Shown here: piece by piece, positions 21,801-53,667 of the stretch | Layout of the letters: every line of letters starts with the position of its first letter | Numbering within the stretch: the first letter of the stretch is position 1 | Assembly: GCA_044892505.1 (NCBI GenBank) | Contig: CM097882.1 | Location: 183,024,001-183,088,000 of the forward strand | Direction of reading: 5' to 3' | Source: Schmidtea nova | Taxonomy: Eukaryota | DNA length: 64,000 bases | Position numbers and translations under genes: made by a program | The notes under the pieces: generated by a model | Database searches by the model: none | What the model was told of the DNA's origin: nothing | The model's input: only the letters and a program-made list of their open reading frames with translations

Positions 21801-21980
21801 AACAACCGCAAAGGGGGGCCTGAAATAAGAAAAAATAGAATTAAATAAAATAATAGTGCAAATAATTAATTAATTACTTGGAAAATCAGGACCACCCAGC
21901 GAGAAACCGGAAAAGGAAACAAAATAATGTTTAGATTAGATTAAAATAATAAAAATACTTTGAAGGACGGTCTGATCCTG

Positions 21981-22015
21981 ATTGGTCAATCCAACCAGAC
22001 GGATCAGTATAAATA
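21981..22015 (+). promoter_or_regulatory. Putative LTR promoter: reverse CCAAT (ATTGG) and TATAAATA
   Basis: ATTGG at 21981 and TATAAATA at 22008-22015, between an inverted CTGATCC/GGATCAG pair. This implies a short U3 of about 400 bp and a very long transcribed R-U5. Confidence 0.5.
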
Positions 22016-23052
22016 CCGATCCAAAAATCACAGACTTAGACGTTTACTTTTCACTCACAATCAAGACTAAACTTTGATTTGAGTAAATTTTTGAAAAAAC
22101 CGAATTTCATGCAAGGAACCACACATTCAAGTACGGAAGTAATTTTTTATGTTATCTTATATGATGTACCCATGATTTTTATTTAATTAAAATCTTATAT
22201 GTAAACGTTATTTGATCTTATTTTTCCTTTTTGATATTTTAATGCATATAGTTATACTTCCTATGCTGCTCACGCGGCGAGGGAGTCCGAGTCGTCGTTG
22301 TGGGGCCTCACGGTCTCACATGGCGGTTCAACCTTTTTATTGTTTTGGTTTTCATATTTAATTTGGTAGTTGAAATAATTAAATTACATCATTCGAATTT
22401 AACTAGATATTTATCAGCGAGATTAGAGAATTTTAATGCTTATTTAGTCGAGTAAAATTTTCAGTCACGAAATATCGATAATGCGAATACGTCCAGACAG
22501 TTTTCTGGCAATAAGTAAAAAAGTCATCATTTGGTTGTACAGGGGACGTAGCGCAGCGGGCGGTAGAGAAGGTCTAAGGAGATACCAAGAGGGGGTAAAG
22601 TACCCGATAGGTGTCAGGTACCCGAGACAAATGGGTTGACACGCTGAGGTTAAATTTGAGGACGAGAGAGCAGGTATAGCATGACAAGTTATAAAAACTT
22701 TCCAAGTAAATCGATCAAACTGATGAATTTCAATTGAGGTCAAGGTACAGGATATCGCAACTGCATGACAGAGATTAGTAAGACTGAAAATCATAAATTC
22801 TAAAAATACTTTAAATTCCAGTCTAATAAAACTAAAAATCTGTAATTCTAAAAATACTTTTATGCCGATCGCTGTACATAGCGCGGTAGCTCAAAATAAT
22901 CTTATCCTGATCGTCGTACATGGCGCAGGGAAACAAATATCTTATCCGACCGTGGTATATCGCGGTGATGGTTTAAAAATGAGATGGTATTAACTAAAAG
23001 GATTGAGATTAAATAGAATTTACATTTAACTCTTTATTAAATAAAATGACAG

Positions 23053-23529
23053 ATGCTGACATCGTTGAACGAAAGATTAACGCGGATTCGGAACTCAGGA
23101 AAGGAGGACAGGGCGAATGAATGGGCAAATCAGCTCAAGGAGTTGCCCCAGCCAATTCTGCGGACCATTAACGCCCAAGCATACAAGTGGCGGCAAGGGT
23201 TTGGTCGAAAGTGCCCGTTTTCCATCTGGGACGGAGGAAACGATATAATACTCTATCGAGGAGGACCGAACTGGCCGATTTCTCAAAGGCCGTACTCAAA
23301 CAAATTTGGCCGACTTGTCGTACTGATCAAGGACACAGATGGACGGACAAGCCGTGTAATTTATTGGGGGCATATCCCTCGTCGGGAACTATGCCAACTA
23401 GGTCTACACGAATTCCTACCGCGAAAACCGTTCGGCAAGGAGTGCCAGAAGGGACAACCCTCATTCTCTTGGGCTCGTCTTCGTCAGAAACCGATTAACA
23501 GCGAATTGCATAGTTTGTTTCGGAGATGA
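23053..23529 (+). CDS. LTR-encoded hypothetical protein A (158 aa), also at 49679-50155
   Basis: ATG directly after CAG; intact in both LTRs; GC-balanced composition. No recognisable domain. Confidence 0.45.
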   Translation: MLTSLNERLTRIRNSGKEDRANEWANQLKELPQPILRTINAQAYKWRQGFGRKCPFSIWDGGNDIILYRGGPNWPISQRPYSNKFGRLVVLIKDTDGRTSRVIYWGHIPRRELCQLGLHEFLPRKPFGKECQKGQPSFSWARLRQKPINSELHSLFRR

Positions 23530-23715
23530 AAACTGATTAACAAATGTTGAAATTGTGTTAAAATATTAGAGTTCATTAGTGCATTTTTGTTTTGTTGTTT
23601 TGAGTTTTGGTTTTGTGTTTTTAATAGTTCGTATTGTAACCTAATAATCCTATAATCAAATTTTAATTTTTCACATAATTTAATCATAAAGTAAATATCC
23701 TAAATAAATTATAGA

Positions 23716-24336
23716 ATGACCACCGATTTGATACAGAGAGAATTGGAAAAGATGTGGCGGATCCGGAGAGCCCAGGACAAAGAATTGGGTCTCCTCAAGG
23801 CACAATTGATCAAAGCAGAGGCACAGATCGCATACTTGCGCAAAAGCTGGTTTGCTCCGGCCCGAATGAAGGAGCAAATCAGTAAAACCGAGCGCGCCCA
23901 ACAGACTGCAGCCGATTACCAAATGGAATGGGAGGCCACAAGGATAGAACTCCGAAAATGCCTCCATTCCGTAACTGCCTCATATATTGAGAAAGAGCTC
24001 AGAGAGCAAATCCGTCCGGTTACGTACCAAGCGTGGACATCAGAAAAGAAGACGGTAAATTCGATTGGCACGGATGTCGCCGATCTAATCGAAAGTCGGA
24101 ATGAGACAGCTCCTGCAGCAAATGCAACCACCTCATCGGCGAATGCGCACCAGAAACGCAAGCGCATTGGGCAGAAACGGCGAAGACAGAGGAAATTATT
24201 TGCCCAGCAATTACAAAGCCAAGTAGATGGTCTACATCAGATGACCGAGGAGGCATTATTGACGGAGATTTTCCCTCCGGCTGGAGTTTTTTTCGGAATT
24301 GATGAAAACTTAAATAAAATTTTCGTGTTAATTTAA
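23716..24336 (+). CDS. LTR-encoded coiled-coil protein with Arg/Lys-rich motif (206 aa), also at 50342-50962
   Basis: Heptad-like N-terminal half and a KRKRIGQKRRRQRK basic motif. TTATAG|A-ATG context; AATAAA at 24397. Confidence 0.7.
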   Translation: MTTDLIQRELEKMWRIRRAQDKELGLLKAQLIKAEAQIAYLRKSWFAPARMKEQISKTERAQQTAADYQMEWEATRIELRKCLHSVTASYIEKELREQIRPVTYQAWTSEKKTVNSIGTDVADLIESRNETAPAANATTSSANAHQKRKRIGQKRRRQRKLFAQQLQSQVDGLHQMTEEALLTEIFPPAGVFFGIDENLNKIFVLI

Positions 24337-24788
24337 AATTGTTATCGTTCTTTTAAATGGATTTAATTAACTTTACAAATGATTAGATAAAGATAGAATA
24401 AAAGTATAAACTCATTTTACAAAATACCTAATAGAGATAAATAAATAATTAAACGAGCATTTGTTGAAATACTTCTTGCAGAATGAGAGAGGTTAAAGAT
24501 AAATTTACTGAAAGATATTGCGGAACACCCAAATAGATGATTAAAGCATAAGTCCTTCTAACGGCAGCGATGAACCCGTAAACATAAATGGGGAGTAGTA
24601 CTAGCGATAGTGCTCACCTGCCCATCATTGTTTAACCACCCTGCGCATCACCAACTTGGTTATACAGGGAAATAATCAAGGGCGCTTGAGTGTAGAATTG
24701 CAATTTTGTGCATGATCATGGATGAGGGAATCCCTAGTCATTGTTAGAGCATTTTTCATCTAACCCCTCCATGAACCCAGCATAAATT

Positions 24789-24806
24789 TGGGGGCTCAGC
24801 CGGGAT
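24789..24806 (+). promoter_or_regulatory. Primer-binding site, tRNA-Pro-like
   Basis: TGGGGGCTCAGCCGGGAT, 6 nt after the LTR end; 16/18 identical to the tRNA-Pro PBS TGGGGGCTCGTCCGGGAT used by MLV. Confidence 0.85.
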
Positions 24807-25112
24807 CAACTTCGTTTTATCGGAAAAATGTAAACGTAAAATCTGCAGAGAGGTTTAAAATGCTCGGGTCAATTAATTTAATAAAAAACAGAAAGGTTAT
24901 AATTAAATATAAATTATTGTATAAAAATTAAATAAACAACACGGCAGTGAACAAAAGTGAATTTAGAAATTAAAATGCATGCATAATTTGTCGGGACGAC
25001 AATTTTCGGAAACACGGGGAGGATTGATAAATATCAAAGATACAAAACGAAACATATTACTACTTTAAAAATGATAAAAATAACAGAGTTAAAACGATTA
25101 TTTATTTAGTAA

Positions 25113-25574
25113 ATGGAGGAAAAACTGAAAGAAATTGAAGAATTTCTCAACACAGAAAGCGAAACATTAGAAACGATTGGCAAGAAAATAAACCGATTTA
25201 GAGAAATTGAATTTCAGGAACCCACAACACAGACTGAGGAAACAGAGGAATTAATAAAGATAACAGAGAGAACAAGAAAAATCGACATAAAGACCCGCTA
25301 CAAATGGTACAGAACACGATTAGAAAACGCAGAATTAAATATTAAGTGCAAGCAAATAGAACAACAATTAACCTCAACATACAATCAATGGAGGGCGCAA
25401 GGGGTAGAAGCAGCGAAAAAATACCGACAGTGCTATATATGTGGGGATAGCGAGATACAAATTATGTTTTTACCTTGCGGACATTTTCGTTTTTGTAAGA
25501 TATGTGCCAGCAAGTGCGACCTATGTCCTATGTGCAACCTGAGGATAGACGATAAAATTATTGTATATTTATAA
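25113..25574 (+). CDS. Coiled-coil plus C-terminal C3HC4 RING protein (IAP/MDM2-type RING)
   Basis: CYICGDSEIQIMFLPCGHFRFCKICASKCDLCPMCNLRI at the extreme C-terminus. No BIR motif seen. Confidence 0.85.
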   Translation: MEEKLKEIEEFLNTESETLETIGKKINRFREIEFQEPTTQTEETEELIKITERTRKIDIKTRYKWYRTRLENAELNIKCKQIEQQLTSTYNQWRAQGVEAAKKYRQCYICGDSEIQIMFLPCGHFRFCKICASKCDLCPMCNLRIDDKIIVYL

Positions 25575-26055
25575 TAAATAAATTTGAATGGAATTTTATT
25601 GGTTTATTAATGATGAAATCATGGGTACAATTGTCATATATAAATAATTTTTGAGCTACTGCAAAGTAGTCCGATAAGAATCCATTGGGAGGTACCGATT
25701 GATCAACCTAGTCAGGGTGTATAGAAAGGGGCCCATCGCAAATGTTGGAAAGTTTTTGTGATGTGATTGATCACCACATCCTGCATTAATGGACCAACGC
25801 GATCTTTTTGTATATTTTGGTTGGGGAGAGAGATAGGGAAATCTTGATGGAGTAAAGCGCGCACAGAGAAAAATAAATAAAAAGTTGAAGCAGACTGATC
25901 AGGAATTAGTTATGATAGAATAAAGAGATAAATGACAATTTTTGAAAGAATAAAAGGTGCATAGTCAGCTCGCATAGAAGTAGTTATAACTCAGCTGAGA
26001 AATTTTAATCGCTAGCGAAGTTAAGAATTGTGATTAACCGGTTAAATAAAGTTAG

Positions 26056-26433
26056 GAGATTTGTCCCTTGAAACAAAGGGTTATGAGATTTGTCCCTTGA
26101 AACAAAGGGTTAGGAGATTTGTCCCTTGAAACAAAGGGTTATGAGATTTGTCCCTTGAAACAAAGGGTTAGGAGATTTGTCCCTTGAAACAAAGGGTTAG
26201 GAGATTTGTCCCTTGAAACAAAGGGTTATGAGATTTGTCCCTTGAAACAAAGGGTTAGGAGATTTGTCCCTTGAAACAAAGGGTTATGAGATTTGTCCCT
26301 TGAAACAAAGGGTTAGGAGATTTGTCCCTTGAAACAAAGGGTTATGAGATTTGTCCCTTGAAACAAAGGGTTAGGAGATTTGTCCCTTGAAACAAAGGGT
26401 TATTAGCGGTTTGTCCCTTGAAAAAAAAGGGTT
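26056..26433 (+). repeat. Tandem array of a 29-bp unit, 12 near-perfect copies plus 1 degenerate
   Basis: GAGATTTGTCCCTTGAAACAAAGGGTTA[T/G], with no spacers. Confidence 0.95.
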
Positions 26434-26475
26434 GAGGCCAATGAGCCATATTGAATGACCTAGCTAGGCGTTATG

Positions 26476-26699
26476 GAGAGATTAAATTAAGGCCAAGAGA
26501 GCCATTTGAGAGATTAAATTAAGGCCAAGAGAGCCATTTGAGAGATTAAATTGAGGCCAATAGAGCCATTGGAGAGATTAAATTAAGGCCAAGAGAGCCA
26601 TTGGAGAGATTAAATTAAGGCCAAGAGAGCCATTTGAGAGATTAAATTGAGGCCAATAGAGCCATGTGAGATATAAAATTGAGGCCAGAAGAGCCATAG
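26476..26699 (+). repeat. Tandem array of a 32-bp unit, 6 near-perfect copies plus 1 degenerate
   Basis: GAGAGATTAAATT[A/G]AGGCCAA[G/T]AGAGCCATT[T/G]. Confidence 0.9.
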
Positions 26700-27308
26700 T
26701 GAATTATAGAGATATCCGGATAAATAGTAACAGGGGGAATATAGACCCATAGTATAATCGTCGACGAGATTTAGAGTAGTGCGCACCAGTAGTTAAGAGA
26801 ATGCGAGTAAAGCTGATTATGCAACCTTAAGTAAAGCATGCAAGAAGAATAGTAAAAATTTGGGCTGACCGGAGCAACCGGCAGAATGAGTAAAACGATT
26901 GCTAGCAGGGAATAATGAATAGAAATGATAAAATAATGATAAACGAGTCAGAAAGACTCAGGTAATTAGAGCGCTCGAGCGACCAATAATTTGGGAAACT
27001 GTGGGAAAAGTAATCGATTTGATAAAACATAGATAATTATTACGACGTAAATAGATAATTGTGACCAGTCTATAGATAATTTAAATAGACTAAAAATAAA
27101 GGGGAATCTGGGAATTGGGAAATAATGAAAACCCAGTAATAAGTAATCCCGAAAGAAAGGGAATAAAAGCGCGACGATAACAATAATGTATCGTTGAGGA
27201 CCTTTGTATTTTAGATATACAAATCAATCAAACCAACCAATCGAACAAGAAGAATCAGAACACGATAAGAGATAAGACAGGAAAATTGAGTATACAAAAG
27301 TAATCCCG

Positions 27309-30300
27309 TTGAGAACAGGAGTAAAGAGTGTCGTAATAAAGCCAACAGAAAAGAAAGTCGGCAGTGAGAGCAATAAAAAAGACAAAACTAGTACTACAAC
27401 AAAAACAACAAAAAAGCAGAAAGCCGGCAAAGATAACAACAAGAACCCACAAGGGAGTAAAGCGAGGAAAATAATAAGAGATAAAGCGATTATCGAAAAC
27501 GATAAATTGTCAGTAGTAAGCAACAGTTCAAGTAACAAAGAAAACCAAGCAGAACCCAAAGAGAGCCAAACAAGTGAAATAGAAGTAGACGAAACTAATA
27601 ACGATAATATAGAAGAATTAGAGAGTGAAGTAGAACAAGAAGTAGAAATCAACGAGAGCGATAACGATAGTATAATATCAGATCACGAAGTAATAAGAGA
27701 AACAGAAAGCGATTCAAGCTCGAGTAAAACGGAAGACGAACATAACAACGAACTAGAAACAAGAGGAAACGAAAGTAAAATAACTCAAGACAGCGGAATT
27801 GAAATGGGTGAACCAAGAGAAGAAATAAAGGATAAATTTTCAGGAGAACCGTTTAACGGAGATGCGAGCAAATTAGAAACCTTTTTAAAAGAATTTGGCA
27901 TATTCGTGGAGGTATGCAAGTGGAAAGCTGAAACAACGGTAAGCAGAATTCAGTTATATTTGAAAGATAGTGCATTGGACCTATATTTGGAAGCGAAAAA
28001 TGGTACCAATCCACCTACAAGCTGGACAGCGATAAAGGATTTTTTCCAACAAACATTTGGAATAAATAAAGTGCTGAGCGAGGCATTCATAGAATTCTCA
28101 ATGAGGAAACAAAAGATGAATGAATCTAATGCGGTATACGCGAGCGAACTGAAAAAATTAGCAAAATCGGTATTCAAGGATGGAGGTCCAATAAACGAGG
28201 AGTTAATGGCAGCCATCTTCATAGGAGGATTAAGAAGACCCGACATAAGAGCACAAGTGGGATGTCAAGGATGCAAAACCATAGATCAAGCGTTAGAAAC
28301 AGCTAACCGATTTGAATTGCATATGATAGGAAGCGAAGGCAGAATTTATTTAGCCATGGACACAGCGCAAACCGAACCAGAAGTAAATCTCAACAATCAT
28401 ATTCCAAATTCGCAACAATTAAACCGACCACCCCCTCAACGAAGGAATGAAGGAAATAAAGTGCAGAACTTTGAAAATCAAAACAATTACAACCCTCAAA
28501 GACAAACAAAACAATGTAAAACATGCGGGAAGTTGGGACACTGGCAGCAAGAATGCTATCAAAATTTGAATTGCGGAAAATGTGGAGTCAAAGGACACTC
28601 GGAAAGCAGATGTTCTACAATAATCTGTTTTAATTGCGGACGACCTGGTCACTATTCAAGAAATTGCGGACAAAAAAGTAATCAACGAGGAAACTGGCAG
28701 AGTAATGGGAACCGACCAAATTACGGAAATCAAGCAAATACCGTAAACCGACCAGATTATGGGAACCAACAAGTCAATAATAACAATAATCAGAACAAAA
28801 CCACCCCCAAAGAAATACATTTAATGCAAGAAGTCCAAAGATTGACGGAACTTATAAACAATACGACGAGAGGAAATCCGCAAACCAATCAACAGCAAAT
28901 TAGCATGATGAGAAAAATAGAAAGCGAAAACGAACGATTGAATCGAGAAAGTCAAGCACGACACGCTCAGGAATGGGCAAGAATACAAAGAGAGGATGAA
29001 CAAAAACAGCAAGAAAGAGAACGACAACCTCTAAGAATTAACATGCTAAGAGCAACAAACCAAACAGACACTCGCGAGAAAGAAACCACACTGGAAATGA
29101 ATTCGATAGACCCGAATCCAGCCGACAACGAAAGTCGAAAAGAAATAGTACAAAAAGATGAAGAAGTAGAAAAAGAAGCAGAAAAGGGAGAGGAAACCGA
29201 GATAAACCAGGAAGAGAGAAGAAAAATTTGGAAAAAAGGAATGATGGTAATCATGCCCAACGACCATATGTTTCGATTCCAATATAACGCAAAAGAAAAG
29301 GTGGAAATACTGTTCAATAAAGTAAACCAGATGATTCCAGGAGTGACAAAACTGCCCAGAGAAGCGTTCTTACAAATAGGAGATGCACCATCAGTAAAAT
29401 TGAAATTAACGGATATATGGGAAAACATGGGAGTAGTAGAAACAAAAAGAAATGTGATGAGAATTAAAGAAATAGAACCAGAAGAAATACCACCACCAAT
29501 ACGTCACGAAACCCGAATCCGGCGAATATTTGAAGGAAAAATGATAAGAAGACGTTTAAAAGAGATAGACGAGTTGGGAAAGAAAATGGAAAAAGTCGAA
29601 GTAATAGAGGACAAGAGTGAACCAACACCAGAAATTGACAAAAACGAACCAGAACCAACGGAGAATATACAAGGAGAAACGAACCAAACAGCACATATTA
29701 ATATGTTAAGAAATACCACCAGAGAGTTTTCCGATGAAGAAGAAGATAGTGATATCAGTAGCCTAGCAGGAGACATATTAAACGAATCCGAAGACGAAAA
29801 TAAAGAGAGAGAAGTAATAAAGACCTCAGAACCTACACAGATAAAAGTAGATGAAATCCAGAAATTACTAGATAACTCGCTAGAAGTAATATATAACGAA
29901 GAGTTCATGGACAAGAAACAATATCGGAAATTCATGAAAGCATTATTACAAATGAACTACAAAGAATGGTTACAAGACCGGGAAGTAGACATGTTGAATC
30001 GATACGTAGGGAAATTAATAGAGGAACCACTTCTCAATTACACCATCTCAATAATAATAAATACATCTACACCAAGAATCTGGATCAAAACTCCATTTAC
30101 AGATGATATCTACAGATGGGTAGAGGACAGACTAGGGAGTTCATATAAAAACAAATTCATCTATTCGCAGAATAGACTCGTAAAGAAAAGAACGCACTTA
30201 GTAGAAACAGGTATATGGCCAGGAGAAATAACCCTATTATCAATATGTGATGAAAAGGAAGAAGAAAACCTACAAGAAGTTGCAAGGGAGGCAAACACGT

Positions 30301-32669: not shown

Positions 32670-32678
32670 GCCAAGAAT

Positions 32679-38600: not shown

Positions 38601-41600
38601 ATAAATATGCTCAGAGCTAATGTAACTGAAGACGACAAAGCAGAAATAAGGCAAAAAGAAATCAGAAACAAAGAGATCATATTGAAGGCGAGAGAAATAA
38701 TGGGAAGATGGCATGTTAGAGACGAAGCAGGCATATCAAGGGATATTAGACATATGATTAGCCGTTACGCACAAGGATTACCAACCGAACCAATTATTTC
38801 TGAATTATTGGAAAAAATCCCTGAAATACTCTTATTGAAAGATGTAGGAGGACAACCAGCCTTACATAATGCGATAGAGTGTAAAAACATTGAAAGAGCA
38901 AAAGAATTCCTAAAAATCGCAAAAGAAACAAACCAAAACTTGGACGTAGGGAATCGGGAACAAGAAACTCCATTAATGACAGCCGCAATCCACCAAGCAG
39001 ATAAAGAAATGATAGACCTATTGATAAAAGCTCATTTCAGTTGGACAGAACGAGATAGAGAGGACAAAACAGTGCTAAATCACGTAATATGGAGTTCTCA
39101 CCAACCAATGCTGAAATACATAATAGCTAACTCCACTTGGGAGATAGACGAACTAGTTAAAGGAGACATTATCAAAGAGGCAATCAAAATTGGTAAATGC
39201 AACACGATCCGTAAGTTAATCAAATGGAAACGACCAGAAGATGATACATGGGTCTTAGACATAAACGAAGTATACAGCGAAGGACAAAACGCACTGTTAA
39301 GATACCTTTTGAAATTTACTTGTGATCAGAAGACATTACTAACCTTATTAGACAGAGGAAACATAAACATCACAAAGAATGAAGAAGAATACAAATTCGA
39401 TAAAGAGAAGGAAGCCTTATTCAACAAGATTAGGAAATGGTGTGCGAAACCACTTGATAAACTAATAACATACAAAGACATAAACAATTTTAACGAGAAA
39501 TACCAGACGATAGTAAGCGAATATGAGGAATTAGTAAAAATCTTAAACCATCCCGAAAAATGCAAACAGGTTTTAGAGAAAAAAGAAAGAGAAAGTAACA
39601 AGAAACTCACACCACTCTTCAAAGCAGAAGCACCATACCAAGCTAGACTAGATGCGATACAAGAAAAAGCAAAAGAATTGTTACCGGAATTCGAGAATAG
39701 TAAACATGCACTGGAAATACTCGGCGCATTAGTTGAAAAAGTACACGCATACGCAAAAGGAACATACAATGGTAACGACATAGTAATAATAAAAAAGGAA
39801 ATGCCAGTAACATTCCTATTACCAAAAGACGGAATAATGCCCATACATAGAGCTCTACGAAATGGCAAAGATAGGAAAGTAATGGAAATTGCAAGAGTAA
39901 TGCTAAATTGCGGAAGCAATATGAATATGATAGACGAGAAAGGAGATACACTTATGGTATTTGCAGCAAGGGCCAAAACGAAAACAAAGGTATTAGAAGA
40001 ACTATACAAAGCAGGTGCAGGACTTACAGGAAAGACAGATAAAGATAATTCGATATTAGATGTAGCATTATTAACACACAATTGGGAAATGGTCAATTTC
40101 ATTAAAACCGTCCCAAATCAGGAAGAAATAGATCACCTAACTGATACGGTCAAGAAACCCAGTGTACTAGCAATGATGAACAACGTCGAACTAACAGAAT
40201 CAATACTTACGTGGATAAATCCTAATACTAACGAACCAGCATTCAGGATTAATAAATTTACAGAACATAACCAAAACTGGTGTATAAGAAGTGCCTTAAT
40301 AACGTATAAATGGCCAGAGATATTGAAGATGTTTATGGAAAGAAAGGATCTAAGAATCACAACCAGCCCGAAAGAAGAAAAATACACAGGCAAATGGAAA
40401 GAATTGATGAAGACATACATCAACAATTGGATCAAGGCCAAAAAGGAAATCTTGGAATATAAATCCACTAACAAAGTAATACCGGAGCAGGTAGAAACAC
40501 AAGAATTTGAGGCAAGCAATCTAACGACATTAGCATATGCAAAATTAATAGAAGAAATCAATGTCGAGGACGACATTTTCGACGAGCCAGGGGGAGATGA
40601 CAACACAGATAGTGACGACGATAACAACTCAGAAAATTCAAGCGATCACGAACCACCCGATAAAGAGGAAAACGAGAGAAAAGACAAGAAACGAGACAAG
40701 GAAGGAAAGAAAGGTGAAGACGAAAAACAAAGAGATGAAGAGAGAGAACAAGGAACAAACGACCAAGGAGATAAAAATGACACCCAAAGAACAGGTTATA
40801 AATCAACTATAAAACCATTCTTCAGACCAGAGTTACTATTATTAACAGTGATTTTAACGTTAATTAATCCAAGTCAAGGAATGACATGTGAAGAAAGGGC
40901 AATAATACAAATAAAAAACGCAAAAGGAATCGAACGAGTATGTTGGTCGAAAAAGGACAAAATCACGGAACAAAATAGCCCGATGGATTGCAGAATCTCA
41001 GAACACGAGCAAGAAATCATAGAGATCAACGACCTAGATCTAGATACCTGGTACAAAATATGCACCGTTAGGAAACAAAAGCATCCAAGATCACACAACA
41101 CAATCGCATGTGCAAAATACCAAACACCTAAAGCAGCCATGACAATACAACAGTCACCCAAAGGAGATTACATCCTCGGAAAATGTGGAAGAACAGAGAC
41201 ACAGGGAACAGAAAACAAAAAACCCCAGGCAATAGATAAGCAAACAACACCAACCCTACGAATTACAATAAAGAGGCCCGAAACAAGAATTGCCACAAAC
41301 GAAACCGAAAGAGTGTCTTACCAAATGGAAGTATTATGCTTAGCACTCATACTAATAATAATAAAACGATTAGAGGAAGGAATAGAAATTGAAACTATGA
41401 CAATAACAGAAGTAGAAGATACACAGAATACTAACATAAAATGTTGGGCGAGGAATAACGAGGAAATCGGCGTAAATGAAATAAGGAAAAGTCGAAAACC
41501 AACAACGAATAAAGTAATTAAAGTATCCAAAGTAAAAGCAGATAAGACGTACAAACTATGCCTACTAGAAAAAGAGACAAACAAGAAAGGTACCACAAAA

Positions 41601-44282
41601 TGTAAAACATTCCAACCTGGAGAAGTAATAAAGTTCAGAAGGAGAACGAGGAAGAGAAATAAACAAATCAAACAGAAAGTAAACATAACATTAGAAATAA
41701 AAGAGATAGAACCAAATGTGAAAGGAGTATGCTGGAGGAAGTACGAAAAAGAAACGAATGAAAGAAAGACACCACAATGTCGAACAAACACAGGAACAAC
41801 GACAATTCAAATAAAAGGTTTAGAAAGTAAACAAACCTACGAAATATGTTTAGTAAAGAAAAATGATCAGATAACGATAAACGACCTAGAATGCGGAATA
41901 TACACCACTTCATCCGGAACAAGAACTAAAACGTTAACACGAAAAAATAAAAGAAGACAACGAAACAAAGGGAAACCGAAGTACACCACTACCTTTAAAA
42001 ACAATAAACAACCGATAAGCCAAGAAGTTACGACAAAACCCGAGAAAAAGACATCAGCAACTCTGACATTATGGAAAATAGAGAATAAAACATTGGAGAT
42101 ATGTTGGATAATAGTCCAGAAACATATAAGAAGACAATCAAGAGAGTGCAGAAAAACAAATAAAGAAATCAAGATCGAAAAACTACAATTTAATAGCGAG
42201 TACGAAGTATGTACAATAGAAAAAACGGACGCACTAGGAAACCAACAAGAAAGATGCGAAACCTACTATACACCAGCGAACGCAACATCAAAAGGAATAA
42301 CAAGGAAACTCGAATTCAGGGAACTAAGCCAAACGAATGAACAAATGGACGTAGAAAAAACAATAACCGACCCTCAAGCAAAATGGACACCCGAAGAAGT
42401 TATCAAGGAAGTCAAAAGAAAGCAAGAGGAACGGGAACAATTAATGAGAAAACTAAAGGGACAATACGGAATAATGTTCAACCAAAGCGAATCTATACAA
42501 ACAGACGAGAATAAAGAAATTAAAGAACTAATTGGCTTAGGAATATTAACAGCGACCATACCAGTAATAATCGCGTTATCAGCTATATGGATACGCAAGA
42601 TAAACCCAAAGAAATCGGTAACCCAATGGACAAATAGAGACAGTACAAGCCATGGAGTGGAAATGCTAGAAGAAGAAGCACGAGAAGAACCAAAAAAGAA
42701 AGAAGCAAAAAGCGGAAAACTAGGAATAAACAACAAAGACAAGAAAATAAAAGAGATTAAAGGAGAAGAGAAAAAATATGAAAGGCGAACCAGAAGCCTA
42801 CCGCAGAGTTCAACATGGTTGAGTCTAACAATAATATTGACATTAATTAATAGGGAAGAAGCAATAAACCCACAGACAGGGATAAAAGTAATAAATGTCC
42901 AGGAAGTCGAGAAAATATGTTGGTATAGAGAAGATGAACCAATTGGAGAAAATAACCCACTAAAATGCATAATCAGAAAATCCGACCAGGATATCGTACG
43001 AATAGAAGAAATGGATGGAGGAACCATGCATCGGATATGCATAATAGAAAAGGAAAAGAAGTCGGGACTACCTAAGACAGTCGTATGCCAGAAATATGAA
43101 ACGCCTAGACTTGAATGGTATAGAGTAAAACCAACAAAGAAAGAAATCAAAAACACAATAGATCAACCAGCAACTCAGATAAGAAACACAACGGATAAAC
43201 CAGGAGAAGGAGAGAAAAGCACCAATAAAACGAGAGAAAGAATATCACCCCAACAGGAGTGCGTATGCATAGCATTAATAATAGCAATGTCCAAACGTAT
43301 CAATAAAGGAATAACAATAGAACAAATGGCCATGACAATAAGGAGAAAAGGCCGGAGTAGCAACAAAATATGCTGGGGATGGTACAACGAACAAAAAGAA
43401 TACCAAGTTCAGACAAGCGACGAATCACGAACAAACAAGGAAACCGAAATACAAGAAATACAAATGGACGGAGAAGGAAGTATATGTATATGGGAGAAAG
43501 GAATCCAAGAAGATCAACCCGGAATAGAAAAGTGCAAGACATTCCAAAAAGGAGAAATTCTGAAATTCGATGAAAAAGAATTAACCAAAACAGAAAGAAC
43601 TCTGACATTAACAGGACTTGATCAGACAGTGAAAGGAATATGTTGGACAAAACATAACCCAGAAGGAGAGGAAGGTAACCTAACCCACTGTAAAGAAACA
43701 GGGAATAAGGAAAAAGTCGAATTAAAGAAAATGGAAGTAAATAAGACATACGCGATATGTACCTTCACTAGAAAAGGTTCAGAAAAACCAGAATGCGGAT
43801 TATATCAGATCTCAGAGAAACTACAACAACAGATCAAACCATTAAACGTGGAAAACCGAACAAAAGAAAATAACGTCAAACAACTACTAAATCGCCATTG
43901 GTCTACACAAGAAGTAATGAACAAAGTCAAGAATCAAGTACAGAAGGAGAAGAAGCCAGAGGCTCAAACCCAAAATGAGATAAAAGCGAATCAGAATAAA
44001 ATCAAAGCAACAAACCGTGGAAAAACAGTAATAGGATTAATCAGTATAGGAATATTAATAGCATATGGGATAATGACGACAAGCATAATAGTATATTGGA
44101 GATACAGAAAGAGAAACAAAGCGACAGCCATACAATGGCCAGATATTAAAATTATGAAGCAAAGAATAGAAATACCAGAAGAGATACAGCAAGAATTCCA
44201 AAGAAGAACGAAAGGTAACGAATTCTGGAAACAAAGAGAAGACGAAGAACGATACGAGGAAAAGACGATAATGATGGTATAG
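32679..44282 (+). CDS. pol: Env-Pol-cargo polyprotein (3867 aa): signal peptide, chuvirus-like glycoprotein with TM, PR, RT, RNase H, integrase, ankyrin repeats, two FN3-like membrane modules
   Basis: MIDTGAN (35202), VYIDDLL (36417), ATDASG / NYSVTEREALA / TDHQPL, HDGKLGGH..CLTC, MDVIG..TDQGTNF..TERFNGTL, GPY. Ankyrin motifs GQPALHNA, ETPLMTA and GIMPIHRA. Confidence 0.95.
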   Translation: MKKKFEKILEELEKEQAGTGNAKSSMNLSAIIMMMLIWMISTDSATAFEVFDCDQMKLGEKYSLRGTEQCKDATPVELQKIKKEQWYHVYQEAELIKTMVNECKVQKTRFAFYCGRGHYSAIVMPGTEREPIVLQGEDCEALFKHGEVTTRDKIKIRGKPGMMMQQTYYVAGRITGGEGYCQGETYPIFGVPATNLVVMDTYIVELKSYEAFFEPTTGEMKTLSMCKIDRSMCQTGMSTLVYKPKVNECQLQLLQGAQFDEIQGKTFQEEDDDDKARAKHLKEALENKRQLKPDHREKRIEMRATPTVLITTNQDVGMRFIKGKATLKCSTTVYETNYPGIYVSKQEVPNAKPKIDTMDIKLHLYVNNKMDFLFHRGQASLQKVYYDLINNDCILNREILKTKLAVAITNPDSAMPLLPLREGHFGRVVGEAMYVYICEKTHASLAATTQLKPGTCTNELEIDYKGKVRYVQPVTRIINPPGFEPNPFNCSNAYGPLYQKPDGKWVMFPGRSEVIAPREFELMQLSKDRQFSDVDVSNNGIYSPKDLEAARQNILFPARREALLSNIVTITGGTDYREGPNYELLLSPAHFKKATENMMKAMWGRFLIFGQMMAGILGVILIIQIVRVIITQMLACFDIYKREKKVNWKMVVGFLPFLAKTMVLHGHSKDIHRIKRLLKILAKMKGTDEEVGRKFKKIMNDEQARQQLKRERKGLWERMKGYKTQNDSSDDDDDDDDYKGGQVYKNQAPQYIEKNPADAWKCYAPPPTMYQEPLQGGKNSTMQMMPMTNVYPMIPEDYKMRRCRSVDPQGDTHTIAVMSSNTGPVLTTTIEINGREIEAMIDTGANISAIDIKWIPQEQRREIERTNVHVIACSKEVVEVAGRWWVKIRHLNTEIDTYVAVIPALSVPCIIGTDLMPALFKEIVIDLGTMRLKDRTGQICAIEAKVTSSKQMIIPARKEKICYVKIDPTIQGDMIFEPSKRFEKRKALPMARGLVNINDDGEIPINVVNFDEEDKIIYENERLGKLTPMMDIELPIEGAEKDKEPTWNIDSELLNEDQKKQLEKLLMEYKDIFAASDLDLGTCDVTLHTIPLTDETPIALRPYKLAEAQKAVAEAEVKKMLDAEVIEPSCSPWQFPVVMVKKKDGTQRFCIDYRRLNTVTKRDTYPLPDINEMLLTLQGAAYFTSLDLKSGYWQIKMKEEDKVKTAFTIGRDLYQFRKMPFGLTNAPASFQRCMNFVTRGIKQCMVYIDDLLIYSSTFEQHIQDIRDVFVRLRQWKLKLKPSKCDWAKEKVTFLGHIVSAKGKEPDPRNIDKVKECPVPKTITQIQEFLGLCGYYRKFIKDYAGIAKPIQELVKKDVSFIWGDEQQTAFETLRDKLITAPILVHPDFKKPFLLATDASGYAAGAVLGQYDDEGKERVIGYYSRTFKKHEKNYSVTEREALAIILAIKHFKYLLWGHIICITTDHQPLVWLGQHKETSSRLMRWAMQLQEYSPDIKFKSGKANANADCMSRLTFPELTDPDVQRICVLIAEDLDFSELKKDQQEDKELGQIIEFLTSRNMEVFKDNKELKEHIGKYQHRYIINKGWLLIQDGEKRLMCLPENRRKEIMIKYHDGKLGGHMSEKKTINRMRQKYYWRTMEEDIKEWIKNCLTCATRKDSGKKWKNPLQPMPIPAEPMTTIAMDVIGPLPESLNGNIYILVITDYLTKFPEAFAMQDQKAKTVAKILVEEICCRYGTPKQILTDQGTNFMSELLNEVTNYFRIAKLRTSPYHPQTNGQTERFNGTLIRMLSNYVSRHQTDWDEYIKLCLMAYRMSIHAATKLSPFQLMYGRECNMPIDLEYQPPLSQYMEDDDYVTKFKERMQEIWKTAELNIKFYQESYKDLHDQKKNVKANDLKPGDWVIIETPEIIPGTVKKLQRPGRGPYEIIYKKDNNVKVKLINRPLIRPIYVNTCRCKKVPKTITTTPENRIITRSQTARINMLRANVTEDDKAEIRQKEIRNKEIILKAREIMGRWHVRDEAGISRDIRHMISRYAQGLPTEPIISELLEKIPEILLLKDVGGQPALHNAIECKNIERAKEFLKIAKETNQNLDVGNREQETPLMTAAIHQADKEMIDLLIKAHFSWTERDREDKTVLNHVIWSSHQPMLKYIIANSTWEIDELVKGDIIKEAIKIGKCNTIRKLIKWKRPEDDTWVLDINEVYSEGQNALLRYLLKFTCDQKTLLTLLDRGNINITKNEEEYKFDKEKEALFNKIRKWCAKPLDKLITYKDINNFNEKYQTIVSEYEELVKILNHPEKCKQVLEKKERESNKKLTPLFKAEAPYQARLDAIQEKAKELLPEFENSKHALEILGALVEKVHAYAKGTYNGNDIVIIKKEMPVTFLLPKDGIMPIHRALRNGKDRKVMEIARVMLNCGSNMNMIDEKGDTLMVFAARAKTKTKVLEELYKAGAGLTGKTDKDNSILDVALLTHNWEMVNFIKTVPNQEEIDHLTDTVKKPSVLAMMNNVELTESILTWINPNTNEPAFRINKFTEHNQNWCIRSALITYKWPEILKMFMERKDLRITTSPKEEKYTGKWKELMKTYINNWIKAKKEILEYKSTNKVIPEQVETQEFEASNLTTLAYAKLIEEINVEDDIFDEPGGDDNTDSDDDNNSENSSDHEPPDKEENERKDKKRDKEGKKGEDEKQRDEEREQGTNDQGDKNDTQRTGYKSTIKPFFRPELLLLTVILTLINPSQGMTCEERAIIQIKNAKGIERVCWSKKDKITEQNSPMDCRISEHEQEIIEINDLDLDTWYKICTVRKQKHPRSHNTIACAKYQTPKAAMTIQQSPKGDYILGKCGRTETQGTENKKPQAIDKQTTPTLRITIKRPETRIATNETERVSYQMEVLCLALILIIIKRLEEGIEIETMTITEVEDTQNTNIKCWARNNEEIGVNEIRKSRKPTTNKVIKVSKVKADKTYKLCLLEKETNKKGTTKCKTFQPGEVIKFRRRTRKRNKQIKQKVNITLEIKEIEPNVKGVCWRKYEKETNERKTPQCRTNTGTTTIQIKGLESKQTYEICLVKKNDQITINDLECGIYTTSSGTRTKTLTRKNKRRQRNKGKPKYTTTFKNNKQPISQEVTTKPEKKTSATLTLWKIENKTLEICWIIVQKHIRRQSRECRKTNKEIKIEKLQFNSEYEVCTIEKTDALGNQQERCETYYTPANATSKGITRKLEFRELSQTNEQMDVEKTITDPQAKWTPEEVIKEVKRKQEEREQLMRKLKGQYGIMFNQSESIQTDENKEIKELIGLGILTATIPVIIALSAIWIRKINPKKSVTQWTNRDSTSHGVEMLEEEAREEPKKKEAKSGKLGINNKDKKIKEIKGEEKKYERRTRSLPQSSTWLSLTIILTLINREEAINPQTGIKVINVQEVEKICWYREDEPIGENNPLKCIIRKSDQDIVRIEEMDGGTMHRICIIEKEKKSGLPKTVVCQKYETPRLEWYRVKPTKKEIKNTIDQPATQIRNTTDKPGEGEKSTNKTRERISPQQECVCIALIIAMSKRINKGITIEQMAMTIRRKGRSSNKICWGWYNEQKEYQVQTSDESRTNKETEIQEIQMDGEGSICIWEKGIQEDQPGIEKCKTFQKGEILKFDEKELTKTERTLTLTGLDQTVKGICWTKHNPEGEEGNLTHCKETGNKEKVELKKMEVNKTYAICTFTRKGSEKPECGLYQISEKLQQQIKPLNVENRTKENNVKQLLNRHWSTQEVMNKVKNQVQKEKKPEAQTQNEIKANQNKIKATNRGKTVIGLISIGILIAYGIMTTSIIVYWRYRKRNKATAIQWPDIKIMKQRIEIPEEIQQEFQRRTKGNEFWKQREDEERYEEKTIMMV

Positions 44283-44406
44283 GGGCGGATTATGACTGTA
44301 AATAATAGTGTAAATAACAAAGCATTACCGTAATAGTATGGGTATCGATATTATAAAAATTGTAAAAAGCTAGAAAAACAAAGTAAATGATGTATATAAT
44401 TTAGAA

Positions 44407-44763
44407 ATGACCGAACAGGACGAAACAACTGAAATAACTATGGCTATGAGATGGAAGGCACAATGTGATTTATTAGTACGAACAGTCAACTCATTACAGA
44501 ACCAATTAGCGGAAAGACAAATGTTATTATCAGAGAGTTATAACAATTGTTTCGAACAATTACACAGAATAGAGGAACAACAAAGAGTGATAACTGAACT
44601 CACCAGAGAAAATCAAACGATAAGCAACACCAATCAAAGACAAGCAATAGAAATAAACCATTTAACACGAGGAGAAAGAGAAGGATCCGAAGAAGGATGG
44701 ATGAGTTGGGTAATAAATAGATTAAACAGCGAAGCGGAACCAGATTCAACGAATGAGCCATAG
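44407..44763 (+). CDS. Small coiled-coil protein (118 aa)
   Basis: Heptad-rich LVRTVNSLQNQLAERQ...LHRIEEQQRVITELTRENQ; TTTAG|AA-ATG context. Confidence 0.65.
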   Translation: MTEQDETTEITMAMRWKAQCDLLVRTVNSLQNQLAERQMLLSESYNNCFEQLHRIEEQQRVITELTRENQTISNTNQRQAIEINHLTRGEREGSEEGWMSWVINRLNSEAEPDSTNEP

Positions 44764-44856
44764 ATAAATAAAGCGGAAAACTGTAAATATGTAAAAATAA
44801 AAACAAGAAAAATCAAAAAATGAATGACAAGTCGAATGTATATATTATTGTAGAAA

Positions 44857-46233
44857 ATGGACAGAGAAGAACGAATCATCGAAATTTTGAGATTAGAAAA
44901 CAGAAAATGGAGTAAGAGGCTCACATGCGGGAAGTGTAACAATTTATTACGAGAACCCAGACAAACGATATGTGGATGTAGAATATGTACAAAATGTATA
45001 CAAGAATTGGATGCAACAGGAATAACAACATGCCCAGAATGTAAAGAAGGAGGAATAGTGTTGGACGAAACCAGAACGGACAAAGCAACCCAAAGAGAAA
45101 TTATGAGCACCACAACGGAGTGCGTAAATACACCTTGTACATGGCAAGGACAAATAAGTAATCTAGAAAACCATATGGAAAAATGCGAAGAAAAGAGAGC
45201 CGAATGCGAGAAGTGCCAACAGACAATAATTCTAAAGAAGAGAGAACAACACAAGGAAGAATGTAAAGAAGAAGAAATCGCATGCGAGTATTGTGAAGCC
45301 CGAGAAACAAGGAGAAAAATCGAAGAGGAACACTTGAATATAACAGAGGAGAAAGTATGCAGACAATATGTAAGTAAATGTCCAAACAATTGCGAAATAA
45401 CAGAAGAAGTAAAGTTACATGAACATTGGAAAGTATGTACCGAAAGACCAAGAGAATGTCCATATAACAAACAGGGATGCAAAGAAAAGCGGACGCGGCA
45501 ATCAATGAAACAACACCTAGAAGAAGCAGCACTAACGCATGTGGAAATGTCAAACGAAACGACAAAAGGAACGGAACAGACAATCCAGAAATTAGAAAAA
45601 GAAGTAGAATCACATAAGATAATGATGAGTTTACTACTAGAAACAAGAGAGCAGTTTGAACTAACTCGCGAAAAAATGGAAAAGAAAATAATAGCCATAG
45701 AAGAATTAGGAAAAGGAATGAAAATACAATATAATCAATTAATACGAGAAATTGACGAAAGAAGGGACTTACCAATCGCACCTTACCTATGGAAAGTAAC
45801 AGATTTCAGAGACAAACTAGCAGAAGCCAGAAATATGACGAAAACAGCAGTAATAAGCCCACCATTTTATTTATGGAAAAACGGGGTTAAAATAAGATTG
45901 AAAGTATACCCAAATGGAGACGGAAGAGGACAAGGAACACACGTGTCAATATTCTTCTCACTATGTAAAGGAGAATACGATGACCTAATAGAATGGCCCT
46001 TGAAAGTAGGAGTCATTATAAGAATCAAAAGTATGGGAAAACCAGTAGAAAAGTTCTTTGAAACAGATAAACATACCAGTACGAGCGAAAAACCCACAAC
46101 AGAATGCGGACTAGCAGCAGGAGAACCAATGTTTATAAGGAAAGAAAACCTATGGGAGCGACTATATGCAGACACGCTATACATAGAGATGGAGAGGCAT
46201 GAGAAAACAGACAGAAAAGGATGGTTGGCGTAA
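44857..46233 (+). CDS. TRAF-family protein (RING, TRAF zinc fingers, coiled coil, MATH)
   Basis: RING CGKCNNLLREPRQTICGCRICTKC..CPEC; CVNTPCTWQGQISNLENHMEKC; MATH WKVTDF..ISPPFY..RLKVYPNGDGRGQGTHVSIFFSLCKGEYDDLIEWP. Confidence 0.95.
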   Translation: MDREERIIEILRLENRKWSKRLTCGKCNNLLREPRQTICGCRICTKCIQELDATGITTCPECKEGGIVLDETRTDKATQREIMSTTTECVNTPCTWQGQISNLENHMEKCEEKRAECEKCQQTIILKKREQHKEECKEEEIACEYCEARETRRKIEEEHLNITEEKVCRQYVSKCPNNCEITEEVKLHEHWKVCTERPRECPYNKQGCKEKRTRQSMKQHLEEAALTHVEMSNETTKGTEQTIQKLEKEVESHKIMMSLLLETREQFELTREKMEKKIIAIEELGKGMKIQYNQLIREIDERRDLPIAPYLWKVTDFRDKLAEARNMTKTAVISPPFYLWKNGVKIRLKVYPNGDGRGQGTHVSIFFSLCKGEYDDLIEWPLKVGVIIRIKSMGKPVEKFFETDKHTSTSEKPTTECGLAAGEPMFIRKENLWERLYADTLYIEMERHEKTDRKGWLA

Positions 46234-46346
46234 TGAAGGAAGTGACCATGTAAATAAAATGTATAGAAACAATATAAATTAACGAATAATCAAAAACAAT
46301 AAAAATAAAAAATGATTAAATATTCTTTTTATCTGTAATTATAGAA

Positions 46347-47408
46347 ATGGGAAATATAGAAGTAACCTTACAAGAAGTAACAGTACATCAAGACGAAATG
46401 ATCAGAAATCACATGGAGCGGATTGGGATATGGATTCATGCCTATTATCGAAAACAGGAGGAATTGGAAAGACAAACCCAAGCACTAAGAGAAGCCGAGA
46501 AAACGAATCAAAGAAGTCGAGAAAAAATAGAAGAAGTCTACAAACTACTAAGACAACAAAACGAATACTACAAAGAGATGATGAAAGAGCGACGAGAGGA
46601 TAGGGATAGACAACAAATAAAAACAGACCATAAGATTCAGTCAATCACAGAACAATCAAGATATTGGAAGAAAGAGGCAAAAGACTCTTATAAGGAAGCA
46701 AGGGAGATAATAGAACGAACAGCGTACAGCGATGATTGGAAACTGTTTAAAGAGATCGATGAATTAAAAGAGGAATTAGGGCAAAAGATCAGTCAAGAAG
46801 CGTCAAATAAAGTATGGAGTAAGAAAAGACAACAATTTATCAGAGAACAAGCCAAGAAAATAAAAGAATTAACTTATCAAGTACAAAGAATGGGAGAAGA
46901 TTTAGCCAATCAAGAACAATTAAAAGGTATGCTGACCGGAATGTGGAATCACAAAGAAGAAAACATGAAAAGAGATATAAATGGATATCAAGGAGTGATC
47001 ACCCAGAAGAAAATAGAATTAAAAAGAACTAAAGAAAGACTGGAAGAAACGAGGCAGAGTTATGAAGAGAACATAACAAATTTGACAAAAGAAAACGAAG
47101 AACTGAGAAAGAAGTTGGCAGAAAAACCAACGCCAATAAAAGAAACAAGTATCACAGCAGCAGTGACCGAAATGATGGAGAAAGAAGAGAGAGAGAAAAG
47201 ATTAATGGAACTAGAAAGACAAATTGAAACCCTTACAGAACAAGCAAACTATTTGGAATACTTGTTAGACGAAGAGATCCAAATATCCCACACATACCGA
47301 GAAGAAGTCGAAATGTGGAGGAGCACGGTAATATGGATGCCACTCCCCATAAATCAGGTGGAACCTCAAGACGAAGGTTTTCACGAACCCAACGAAACCC
47401 TTGTATAA
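46347..47408 (+). CDS. Long coiled-coil protein (353 aa)
   Basis: E/K/Q/R-rich heptads throughout; no other motif recognised; TTATAG|AA-ATG context. Confidence 0.75.
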   Translation: MGNIEVTLQEVTVHQDEMIRNHMERIGIWIHAYYRKQEELERQTQALREAEKTNQRSREKIEEVYKLLRQQNEYYKEMMKERREDRDRQQIKTDHKIQSITEQSRYWKKEAKDSYKEAREIIERTAYSDDWKLFKEIDELKEELGQKISQEASNKVWSKKRQQFIREQAKKIKELTYQVQRMGEDLANQEQLKGMLTGMWNHKEENMKRDINGYQGVITQKKIELKRTKERLEETRQSYEENITNLTKENEELRKKLAEKPTPIKETSITAAVTEMMEKEEREKRLMELERQIETLTEQANYLEYLLDEEIQISHTYREEVEMWRSTVIWMPLPINQVEPQDEGFHEPNETLV

Positions 47409-47483
47409 ATGTGCGGAAACCAAGTGTAAATAAATTATGTAAAATAAAAAGTGTCAAGCTGTATTGACCGATGTATAAAAGAG

Positions 47484-48053
47484 ATGAGAAAGCTCGCAAT
47501 AACAACACTCCTATGGTTAACAACCATTACCCTACAGAGAGAAGATCTACAACTAACCGAAACCCAATTACGAGTGCTACCCGACAAAATCTACCAGAAA
47601 GTAGACATACTAATCGAAGAAGTACTTAGAGAAATCAACGAATTCCGACAGAAATACCCTCACAATCAAGATCATCAAATCCAACAAATCTTCGATAACC
47701 AACAACTGAAACTAGAAGAAACCCGAAAAATTCTGAAAGAAGGTAGAGAACCCATAAAAAGCCTATCCCAAGCTGAAATAGAATATCAAGAGAAATGGAT
47801 CATAGCAATCATCATAATCCTAGCAGTCAGCACAACTATCATCGCAATCACAATCCTAATTGCCTCATATAGAATAAAAATCCTAAAACAAAAGCAGAAA
47901 ATCTACAACCAAACCTCCAGACGAGATAACCGATCTCAAAGACAAATAAGGAGCCATCTCAATCACATTCAAACCCACTACGAGCTACAAATGATCAACG
48001 AGAGGACCCGAACCCAACCCCAAGCGAGCCAGACGATCGAACAAATTGTATAA
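47484..48053 (+). CDS. Putative type-I membrane protein (signal peptide, helical ectodomain, TM, basic tail)
   Basis: The track start 47451 is GTG; ATG 47484 gives MRKLAITTLLWLTTITLQ. TM WIIAIIIILAVSTTIIAITILIASY followed by RIKILKQKQK. Confidence 0.7.
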   Translation: MRKLAITTLLWLTTITLQREDLQLTETQLRVLPDKIYQKVDILIEEVLREINEFRQKYPHNQDHQIQQIFDNQQLKLEETRKILKEGREPIKSLSQAEIEYQEKWIIAIIIILAVSTTIIAITILIASYRIKILKQKQKIYNQTSRRDNRSQRQIRSHLNHIQTHYELQMINERTRTQPQASQTIEQIV

Positions 48054-48226
48054 ATATTATGATAACTTATCGAACTATTGTGACAAATCATTACATTTTG
48101 ACTATTTAGTGACAAACCTTATGATATGTATAAATTCGATCACCCTATGTGATTTTTTCTTTGCATGTATAACTTTATAAAACTTTTTATGGATGATGAA
48201 AATAAGTAGTTATGTATAATTAATTG

Positions 48227-48256
48227 CGGGACGCAATTTTAGGGGTCCCCGGGTGA
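48227..48256 (+). promoter_or_regulatory. Atypical polypurine-tract region before the 3' LTR
   Basis: CGGGACGCAATTTTAGGGGTCCCCGGGTGA|TGTTGGG: the usual Gypsy CGGGAC..AATTTT plus G-tract layout, interrupted by a palindrome. Confidence 0.5.
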
Positions 48257-51200: not shown

Positions 51201-51408
51201 CCCGTAAACATAAATGGGGAGTAGTACTAGCGATAGTGCTCACCTGCCCATCATTGTTTAACCACCCTGCGCATCACCAACTTGGTTATACAGGGAAATA
51301 ATCAAGGGCGCTTGAGTGTAGAATTGCAATTTTGTGCATGATCATGGATGAGGGAATCCCTAGTCATTGTTAGAGCATTTTTCATCTAACCCCTCCATGA
51401 ACCCAGCA
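48257..51408 (+). repeat. 3' LTR (3152 bp)
   Basis: Colinear copy of 21631-24782, followed by TSD ATAG. Confidence 0.97.
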
Positions 51409-53362: not shown

Positions 53363-53667
53363 TATTAGCAGCAACGATCTCAAATTCGTTTTCGGCATCC
53401 ATTAAAAATTAAATCAGCAACAAAATTTATTAAATTTAAAACTTCGCTTTTTTTTCCAAATATTTAAACAAAAACTTGAAGGCTATTCTTCTGTAATTCT
53501 GATATTGATTCAAATGCTGGATAATTTTTAAATAAGAATTAACATATATTTTAAGATTAATTTAATTAATTAATTTAAGATGTTTAAATAAAAATTTATG
53601 AAATCTGACAAATACAATTTAAATGTTTATTAGCAATTTTAATTTAAACGTGAATTCTACCCTTTCA
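53363..53667 (-). repeat. 3' LTR of the compact Gypsy
   Basis: Direct repeat of 58088-58392, preceded by the PPT. Confidence 0.93.

Follow-up and report, generated by a model that had tools for sequence, protein, structure and literature searches.

The question raised by the locus described here is how a single long terminal repeat (LTR) retrotransposon can express a whole series of separate genes. The locus lies within 64,000 nucleotides (nt) of the planarian Schmidtea nova, taken from contig CM097882.1 (assembly GCA_044892505.1, positions 183,024,001 to 183,088,000 of the forward strand); this stretch is referred to as the window, and its own numbering is used throughout. Positions 21631-51408 are occupied by a young, Burro-like, env-bearing LTR retrotransposon of 29.8 kb, whose two LTRs differ at a single base and which is flanked by a 4-nt target duplication, ATAG. 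The element carries accessory open reading frames (ORFs), two within the LTR, one encoding a RING finger past the primer site and four past pol. A preliminary description had noticed that these ORFs start directly after AGs that resemble splice acceptors, and had offered two explanations, either spliced-leader (SL) trans-splicing of a polycistronic RNA or alternative cis-splicing to a common leader. The second fits better, and with modest confidence we favor a reading in which each accessory ORF, and gag as well, would be expressed through a single LTR leader, cis-spliced to one acceptor or another, and with a choice of 3' ends. Its basis in the sequence is formed by the acceptor-like sites, an ATG-free gag leader, a promoter-like block and donor-like sites.

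The accessory ORFs of the window element are as follows, where yAG stands for TAG or CAG and the gap is counted from the end of the AG to the ATG.

23053..23529, plus strand: ltr1, 158 aa, no Pfam family; CAG ends at 23052, gap 0 nt
23716..24336, plus strand: ltr2, 206 aa, no Pfam family; TAG ends at 23714, gap 1 nt
25113..25574, plus strand: RING-finger ORF, 153 aa, Pfam zf-C3HC4_3 (1.8e-11); TAG ends at 25109, gap 3 nt
44407..44763, plus strand: a1, 3' cargo, 118 aa; TAG ends at 44404, gap 2 nt
44857..46233, plus strand: TRAF-like 3' cargo, 458 aa, Pfam zf-TRAF and MATH; TAG ends at 44853, gap 3 nt
46347..47408, plus strand: a3, 3' cargo, 353 aa, no Pfam family over the cut-off; TAG ends at 46344, gap 2 nt
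47484..48053, plus strand: a4, 3' cargo, 189 aa with two hydrophobic stretches; a weak AAG ends at 47481

A yAG is found 0-3 nt before six of the seven accessory starts, as against 63 of the element's 569 remaining ATGs on the plus strand (binomial 1e-5), and six such starts were not reached in any of 20000 rounds of shuffling the 60 nt upstream. T-rich tracts lie upstream of most of these AGs, and in the close copies read the AG is kept in 10/10 for a1, the TRAF ORF, a3 and a4, and in 9/9 for ltr2. All seven contexts reported earlier (at 23053, 23716, 25113, 44407, 44857, 46347 and 47484) are in place, including the one at 47484 that had been called weaker, where only AAG and GAG occur. Since ltr1 and ltr2 lie within the LTR, their contexts recur at 49679 and 50342. 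The likeness that had been drawn to the acceptors of a host gene in the window holds by eye for TATAG and ATTAG, and extends to AATAG; the TTTAG named in the same comparison was not located in the host gene.

The same arrangement was found in sister families fetched from the same genome, which carry the labels of this analysis. Family F has 55-70% protein identity to the window element and the same 3' cassette, and family E has 30-37% identity and seven 3' ORFs, one of them for a BIR-RING protein and three of them without a match in the window element; family H is known from one LTR and family G from one decayed LTR. Further relatives comprise a gag-only family and cargo-free gag-env-pol families. 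With one hand-chosen copy per ORF, and with family G excluded (a single copy read, decayed), a yAG lies within 5 nt of 20 of the 24 accessory starts over four families (window 6/7, F 5/6, E 7/9, H 2/2), a comparison that spans down to about 30% protein identity and includes some unrelated ORFs. The corresponding figure is 101/569 for other ATGs, and 4/35 for control starts, namely those of ORFs that belong to other mobile elements and fragments present in the loci retrieved (Fisher 5e-8). The four misses are a4 twice, one family-E ORF, where the yAG is 17 nt off with no ATG in between, and the family-E TRAF ORF counted at its first ATG, the second being 1 nt past TTTAG.

Individual homologs bear out this pattern, with a slash marking the putative splice junction. 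The ltr1 homolog in family E is preceded by a T-rich TCTAG, and ltr2 homologs by a yAG in F (7/7 copies), E and H, the last family showing TTTAG/ATG twice. In family F the RING homolog has TTTAG/caATG; homologs of a1 have TTTAG/aaaATG in F and ACAG/aaATG in E, and those of a3 TATAG/aaaATG in F and TTCAG/aATG in E, with TRAF homologs present in both. Three of the four family-E ORFs without a full-length homolog in the window element have a yAG as well. Family F is not independent support, as its spacers are about 75% identical to those of the window element throughout; it is families E and H that carry the conservation argument.

The gag gene, which from the LTR promoter sits behind three ORFs and dozens of ATGs, provides a further line of evidence, and the relevant features are these.

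27200..27214, plus strand: T-rich acceptor-like site for gag; TTTAG ends at 27214 and is followed by 589 nt without ATG
27276..27803, plus strand: 176 open codons upstream of the first gag ATG and in frame with it
27804..32669, plus strand: gag part of the polyprotein, with zinc knuckles; stop at its end in the window copy
32679..44282, plus strand: env-pol; Pfam env (mononegavirus-like fusion protein), protease, reverse transcriptase, RNase H, integrase and ankyrin repeats

The 589 nt between 27214 and the gag ATG hold no ATG where 8.2 would be expected, with none of 5000 shuffles ATG-free, and form the longest ATG-free run of the element. The acceptor context is the same in 30/30 copies, and the stretch that follows is ATG-free in 28/30. 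Similar acceptor sites and ATG-free gag leaders are found in family F (513 nt) and in the gag-only family (531 nt), the last upstream ATG in both being just before the gag acceptor. Because this run is repeated in these families, the acceptor probably marks the start of the gag message. In the cargo-free relatives the ATG-free stretch, of about 640-720 nt, begins at the promoter region and reaches gag, whose start has no yAG. With the AGs kept in diverged families, and with the gag leader, the proposal that the accessory AGs act as 3' splice sites is well supported, and the feature itself is real and conserved.

Within the gag leader, the open stretch at 27276..27803 is likely to encode a non-AUG N-terminal extension of gag under purifying selection. 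The ratio of non-synonymous to synonymous substitution rates is 0.27 in the gag frame, compared with 1.08 and 0.79 in the other frames, there being 61 synonymous and 72 non-synonymous distinct differences among 29 copies. Indels after 27276 are in-frame only, and an ATT at 27285, a candidate start, is kept in 29/29 copies. Open frames are also seen at the like place in family F (153 codons) and the gag-only family (about 129). A leader ATG in frame with gag was considered as a start and rejected, as it is not conserved across families or copies. Beyond gag, a single continuous frame runs into env-pol in 9/9 other copies (10 were fetched, one of which lacked an anchor), the stop interrupting the window copy; the env-pol ATG is an internal methionine in these same copies and no yAG adjoins it, so that an acceptor of its own for env-pol is not needed.

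A common leader also calls for a promoter and a donor, and candidates for both are found in the LTR.

21631..24782, plus strand: 5' LTR, 3152 nt, TG...CA; 99.97% identical to 48257-51408
21979..22013, plus strand: promoter-like block with a CCAAT box (reverse) and a TATA box; the same layout is present in E, F, G and H, and its function is predicted
22128..22144, plus strand: candidate leader donors CAA/GTACGG (GT at 22131) and GAA/GTAATT (GT at 22139), followed by T-rich sequence
48257..51408, plus strand: 3' LTR, in which ltr1 (49679) and ltr2 (50342) are repeated

The CCAAT-TATA block near the LTR start is common to five LTR lineages, and the gag-only lineage has the TATA box alone. CAA/GTACGG is present in 10/11 rows of the window family. 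An AG/GTA is found 79-180 nt past the TATA box in four of six LTR lineages (F, E, G and H) versus 7% of shuffled windows (binomial 3e-4, a figure that treats related lineages as separate), its letters differ between three F subtypes, and T content rises after the donor-like site in five of the six. These observations make a leader donor in the LTR probable. Elsewhere in the LTR, blocks at 22246-22353 and 24539-24740 are 70-85% identical across otherwise unalignable LTR families, and recur on the minus strand at window positions 604-711 and 26-157; they look like structured RNA signals, and an Rfam search of 21600-27900 gave no matches at E up to 1.

With regard to the 3' ends, the spacers of the window cassette measure 124, 93, 113 and 75 nt, in agreement with the 75-124 nt given previously, and those of family E 94-237 nt. 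The AATAAA copies that had been put forward as poly(A) signals are all present (44767, 46253, 47429, 25573 and 24397), yet they make poor markers, as the count is near chance (7 seen versus 3.4 expected, reached by 98/2000 shuffles). AATAAA occurs in three of the four 3' spacers, with none in the pol-a1 spacer, and in 53 copies inside ORFs between 27804 and 48053; there is no excess in the spacers of F and E, where 797/2000 and 1409/2000 shuffles reach the count. A different motif, TGTAHATA, is found in 14 of 15 spacers, a frequency reached by 0/2000 shuffles in each of three families. Its clusters lie just past stop codons, both in the window spacers (44283-47483) and across the three families, and we take it to be a PUF-type 3' untranslated region (UTR) site. 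A role for its TGTA as a CFIm signal was rejected, since no UGUA is reported upstream of planarian poly(A) sites (PMC5068929; this paper, like the others cited by PMC number below, is drawn on for the portions of its text available). The presence of TGTAHATA in nearly every spacer suggests that each accessory ORF has its own 3' UTR; the motif fixes no cleavage site.

Taken together, expression would proceed as follows. RNA polymerase II would start about 30 nt past the TATA box, near 22040, to give a leader of about 90-100 nt that ends at the donor at 22131 or 22139. This leader would be joined to the acceptor of ltr1, ltr2, the RING ORF, gag, a1, TRAF, a3 or a4, the chosen acceptor placing the first good start codon in the chosen ORF, and env and pol would be translated from the gag message within a single polyprotein. 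For each message the 3' end would lie in the spacer past its ORF or beyond, and part of the full-length RNA would stay unspliced for packaging.

Several observations weigh against this scheme. The donor of the window copy lacks the G at -1 and has 6/9 consensus matches, a level seen in 71% of shuffles and in cargo-free LTRs too, and the gag-only family has TGG/GTAATT, with neither an AG/GTA donor nor the rise in T; its gag AG, kept in three of the four copies read, is missing in the fourth. Introns to the 3' cassette would be 22-25 kb long and must skip several acceptors and 3' ends, and the predicted leaders hold 0-2 ATGs. No TAG or CAG is present in the 40 nt upstream of a4, where only AAG and GAG occur, and a4 of family F likewise has only AAG, so that a4 is without a yAG in either family. 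In the family-E TRAF ORF and in 3/7 ltr2 copies of family F, the ATG next to the yAG is preceded by another in the same frame. Comparison of the window and F spacers reveals no excess conservation in the last 22 nt (68/88 kept versus 239/317 for the rest). Four sequence runs over 43600-51408, whose kind (DNA or RNA) is unrecorded, cover ORFs and spacers alike. Among the rows listed (15 of 30 joints, with 834 loose ends outside the listing), neither a GT-AG joint nor a loose end resembling a leader falls at the acceptors, which is evidence neither way.

The alternatives differ in what they make of the same acceptors. In an SL operon, whole or in part, a long transcript would be cut after each ORF and the donor-less piece would receive the host SL at the next acceptor. 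Planarians do have SL trans-splicing, flatworm operon spacers are about 100 nt long, and flatworm acceptors often serve both cis- and trans-splicing (PMC12582326; PMC8629364); the co-directional ORFs with their short spacers, each bearing a 3'-UTR-like TGTAHATA, would suit such an operon, which also dispenses with introns of 22-25 kb, since upstream cleavage would leave pieces open to the SL. The earlier operon argument, that a poly(A) signal is followed some 100 nt later by an acceptor, is nevertheless weak, both because AATAAA is near chance and because about 100 nt is also merely the room needed for a 3' end and an acceptor. An outron, moreover, should contain no donor, yet a donor-like site follows the LTR promoter. 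Where a cis donor precedes an acceptor, cis-splicing normally takes precedence over joining to the SL (PMC4558846; PMC8629364); the LTR ORFs, only 0.9 kb from the donor, show the same layout. In parasitic flatworms the SL has AUG at its 3' end (PMC12582326), which may not hold for the planarian SL, and the AG-to-ATG gaps ignore the frame of such an AUG, with only 8/22 in frame and with the a1 gap varying between copies (2 and 8 of 10), an argument that is itself weak since the AUG may be skipped. Feeding of the gag extension by an SL AUG through the 27214 acceptor was rejected, as a stop and frame-breaking indels intervene in all copies read. An SL sequence has been found merged with six schistosome transposons, possibly through misassembly (PMC5832876). 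Overall, an SL operon in some form strikes us as rather unlikely, though least so for the 3' cassette, 22-25 kb from the donor. A version restricted to the 3' cassette, in which the LTR donor is used just for the 5' ORFs and gag, can be put more strongly: the 4-7 genes of the cassette would be a true operon cut into capped mRNAs by the host SL machinery, and the LTR donor would serve the 5' genes and a non-AUG-started gag-env-pol. We regard this as unlikely.

Foamy viruses use an internal promoter, and each cargo gene here might similarly be driven from within the ORF before it, either with a short intron in the 5' UTR that has the yAG as its end or with no intron at all. Such promoters would account for separate genes with their own 3' ends, but inspection by eye upstream of the 3' acceptors (no systematic scan was made) revealed neither a promoter nor a donor, the short spacers are preceded by coding ORFs, and the LTR promoter better accounts for ltr1, ltr2, RING and gag; we consider the idea quite improbable. 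Still more improbable is that the yAG has no role in splicing but belongs to a context for translation start or re-initiation, or is left over from host exons that were captured. The A-rich spacers and AAA-ATG contexts would suit ribosome re-entry, and a4 manages without a yAG. Yet a yAG lies within 5 nt of just 9 of 105 other AA-ATGs, T-rich tracts lie ahead of most of the AGs, a start context cannot act from the gag acceptor, 589 nt from its ATG, and a relic would not last across families that are about 30% identical. Cis-splicing to a common LTR leader thus remains the explanation that we prefer.

The remaining features of the element lie mostly between the LTR and gag.

24787..24806, plus strand: primer-binding-site-like stretch after the 5' LTR (position read), presumably resembling a tRNA-Pro site
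26051..26697, plus strand: tandem repeats of 29 and 32 nt, inside the predicted gag intron

The Pfam order is that of a gypsy-type element (protease, reverse transcriptase, RNase H, integrase), with env between gag and pol. At the end of env-pol (40560-44130), the ankyrin repeats are followed by repeated cysteine-bearing modules and then hydrophobic stretches, without a Pfam family, which may represent surface proteins. There are 723 candidate copies genome-wide, of which 40 were scored and are 94-100% identical. A protein search with the MATH domain for diverged families returned close copies only, among 150 scored. At locus L102, of family E, the seven 3' cargo ORFs include a 389-aa BIR-RING (IAP-like) protein, and a large part of pol is deleted in the family-E copies read. 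Locus L121 combines the 3' cassette of the window family with an F-like LTR leader and donor, which suggests LTR exchange between families. An LTR of the abundant gag-only relative, a non-autonomous element of about 11 kb, lies at window 1-1610 on the minus strand, with others at L011-L018; this relative keeps the gag acceptor and has no cargo.

Elsewhere in the window, exons of a host alpha/beta hydrolase gene are found at 8960-17770 on the minus strand, with a 58-nt intron near 9072-9129; its Pfam matches are below the cut-off, and the name ABHD12, given in the preliminary description, agrees with what we presume the gene to be. A small, intact-looking gypsy element at 53363-58392, minus strand, has identical 305-nt LTRs, with gag at 57048-58127 and pol at 53665-56841. 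What looks by eye like a hAT-like transposase fragment, together with pieces of another gypsy pol, occupies 12851-13924 and 62208-63781.

The type of element is already known. Burro/GYPSM1 elements are giant planarian gypsy-like LTR retrotransposons (PMC6431247) that share with the window element a length of about 30 kb, gag, env and pol enzymes in one polyprotein, a mononegavirus-like env, tandem repeats, accessory ORFs, and ankyrin, TRAF/MATH, RING and BIR domains, by Pfam the BIR domain being found here in family E only. The window element differs in having TRAF as a separate ORF 3' of pol and two ORFs in the LTR; the likeness rests on the published description rather than on named Burro sequences. 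The text examined of that paper says nothing on expression of the accessory ORFs, nor do the available portions of PMC8532177, PMC11410931 and PMC13238120 treat their splicing. Burro RNA is reported to increase in animals after piwi knock-down (PMC8532177). We found no literature on splicing or trans-splicing of these ORFs; Grohme 2018, its supplement and Rossi 2014, which may bear on it, were outside our reach.

In the giant retrotransposons of planarians there can be as many as nine additional, separate genes, several of which resemble regulators of apoptosis or ubiquitin (TRAF, RING, BIR). If the reading is true, a single leader serving many acceptors would account for the continued gain of genes by an LTR element, because a new ORF would need just an acceptor and a 3' end. 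A strategy of complex viruses would then operate in a gypsy-type element in which gag itself is spliced, and solo LTRs would be self-contained two-gene units whose donors are able to capture downstream host exons.

HIV-1 and other complex retroviruses provide one comparison, in that a major 5' donor is joined to an acceptor ahead of each accessory ORF, while unspliced RNA serves as the genome and as the source of gag-pol, and the poly(A) site of the LTR serves every mRNA. In the window element, by contrast, expression of gag seems to depend on splicing, the donor-like site is part of the LTR and precedes the primer-binding site, and the ORFs appear to have their own 3' UTRs. Closer in size is the adenovirus major late unit (PMC7851563), where one promoter and a short common leader serve many acceptors and several 3' ends over 26-28 kb, so that cis-splicing across 22-25 kb is feasible; however, adenovirus is a DNA virus, its leader is made of three exons and is AUG-free, and its mRNA families share a poly(A) site. 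The likeness is an analogy only, and is predicted for the window element. The SL operons of nematodes and flatworms (PMC12582326; PMC8629364) likewise consist of genes in one direction, spaced by about 100 nt and each with an acceptor near the start codon, whereas the window element has a cis donor-like site upstream and also requires a full-length genomic RNA.

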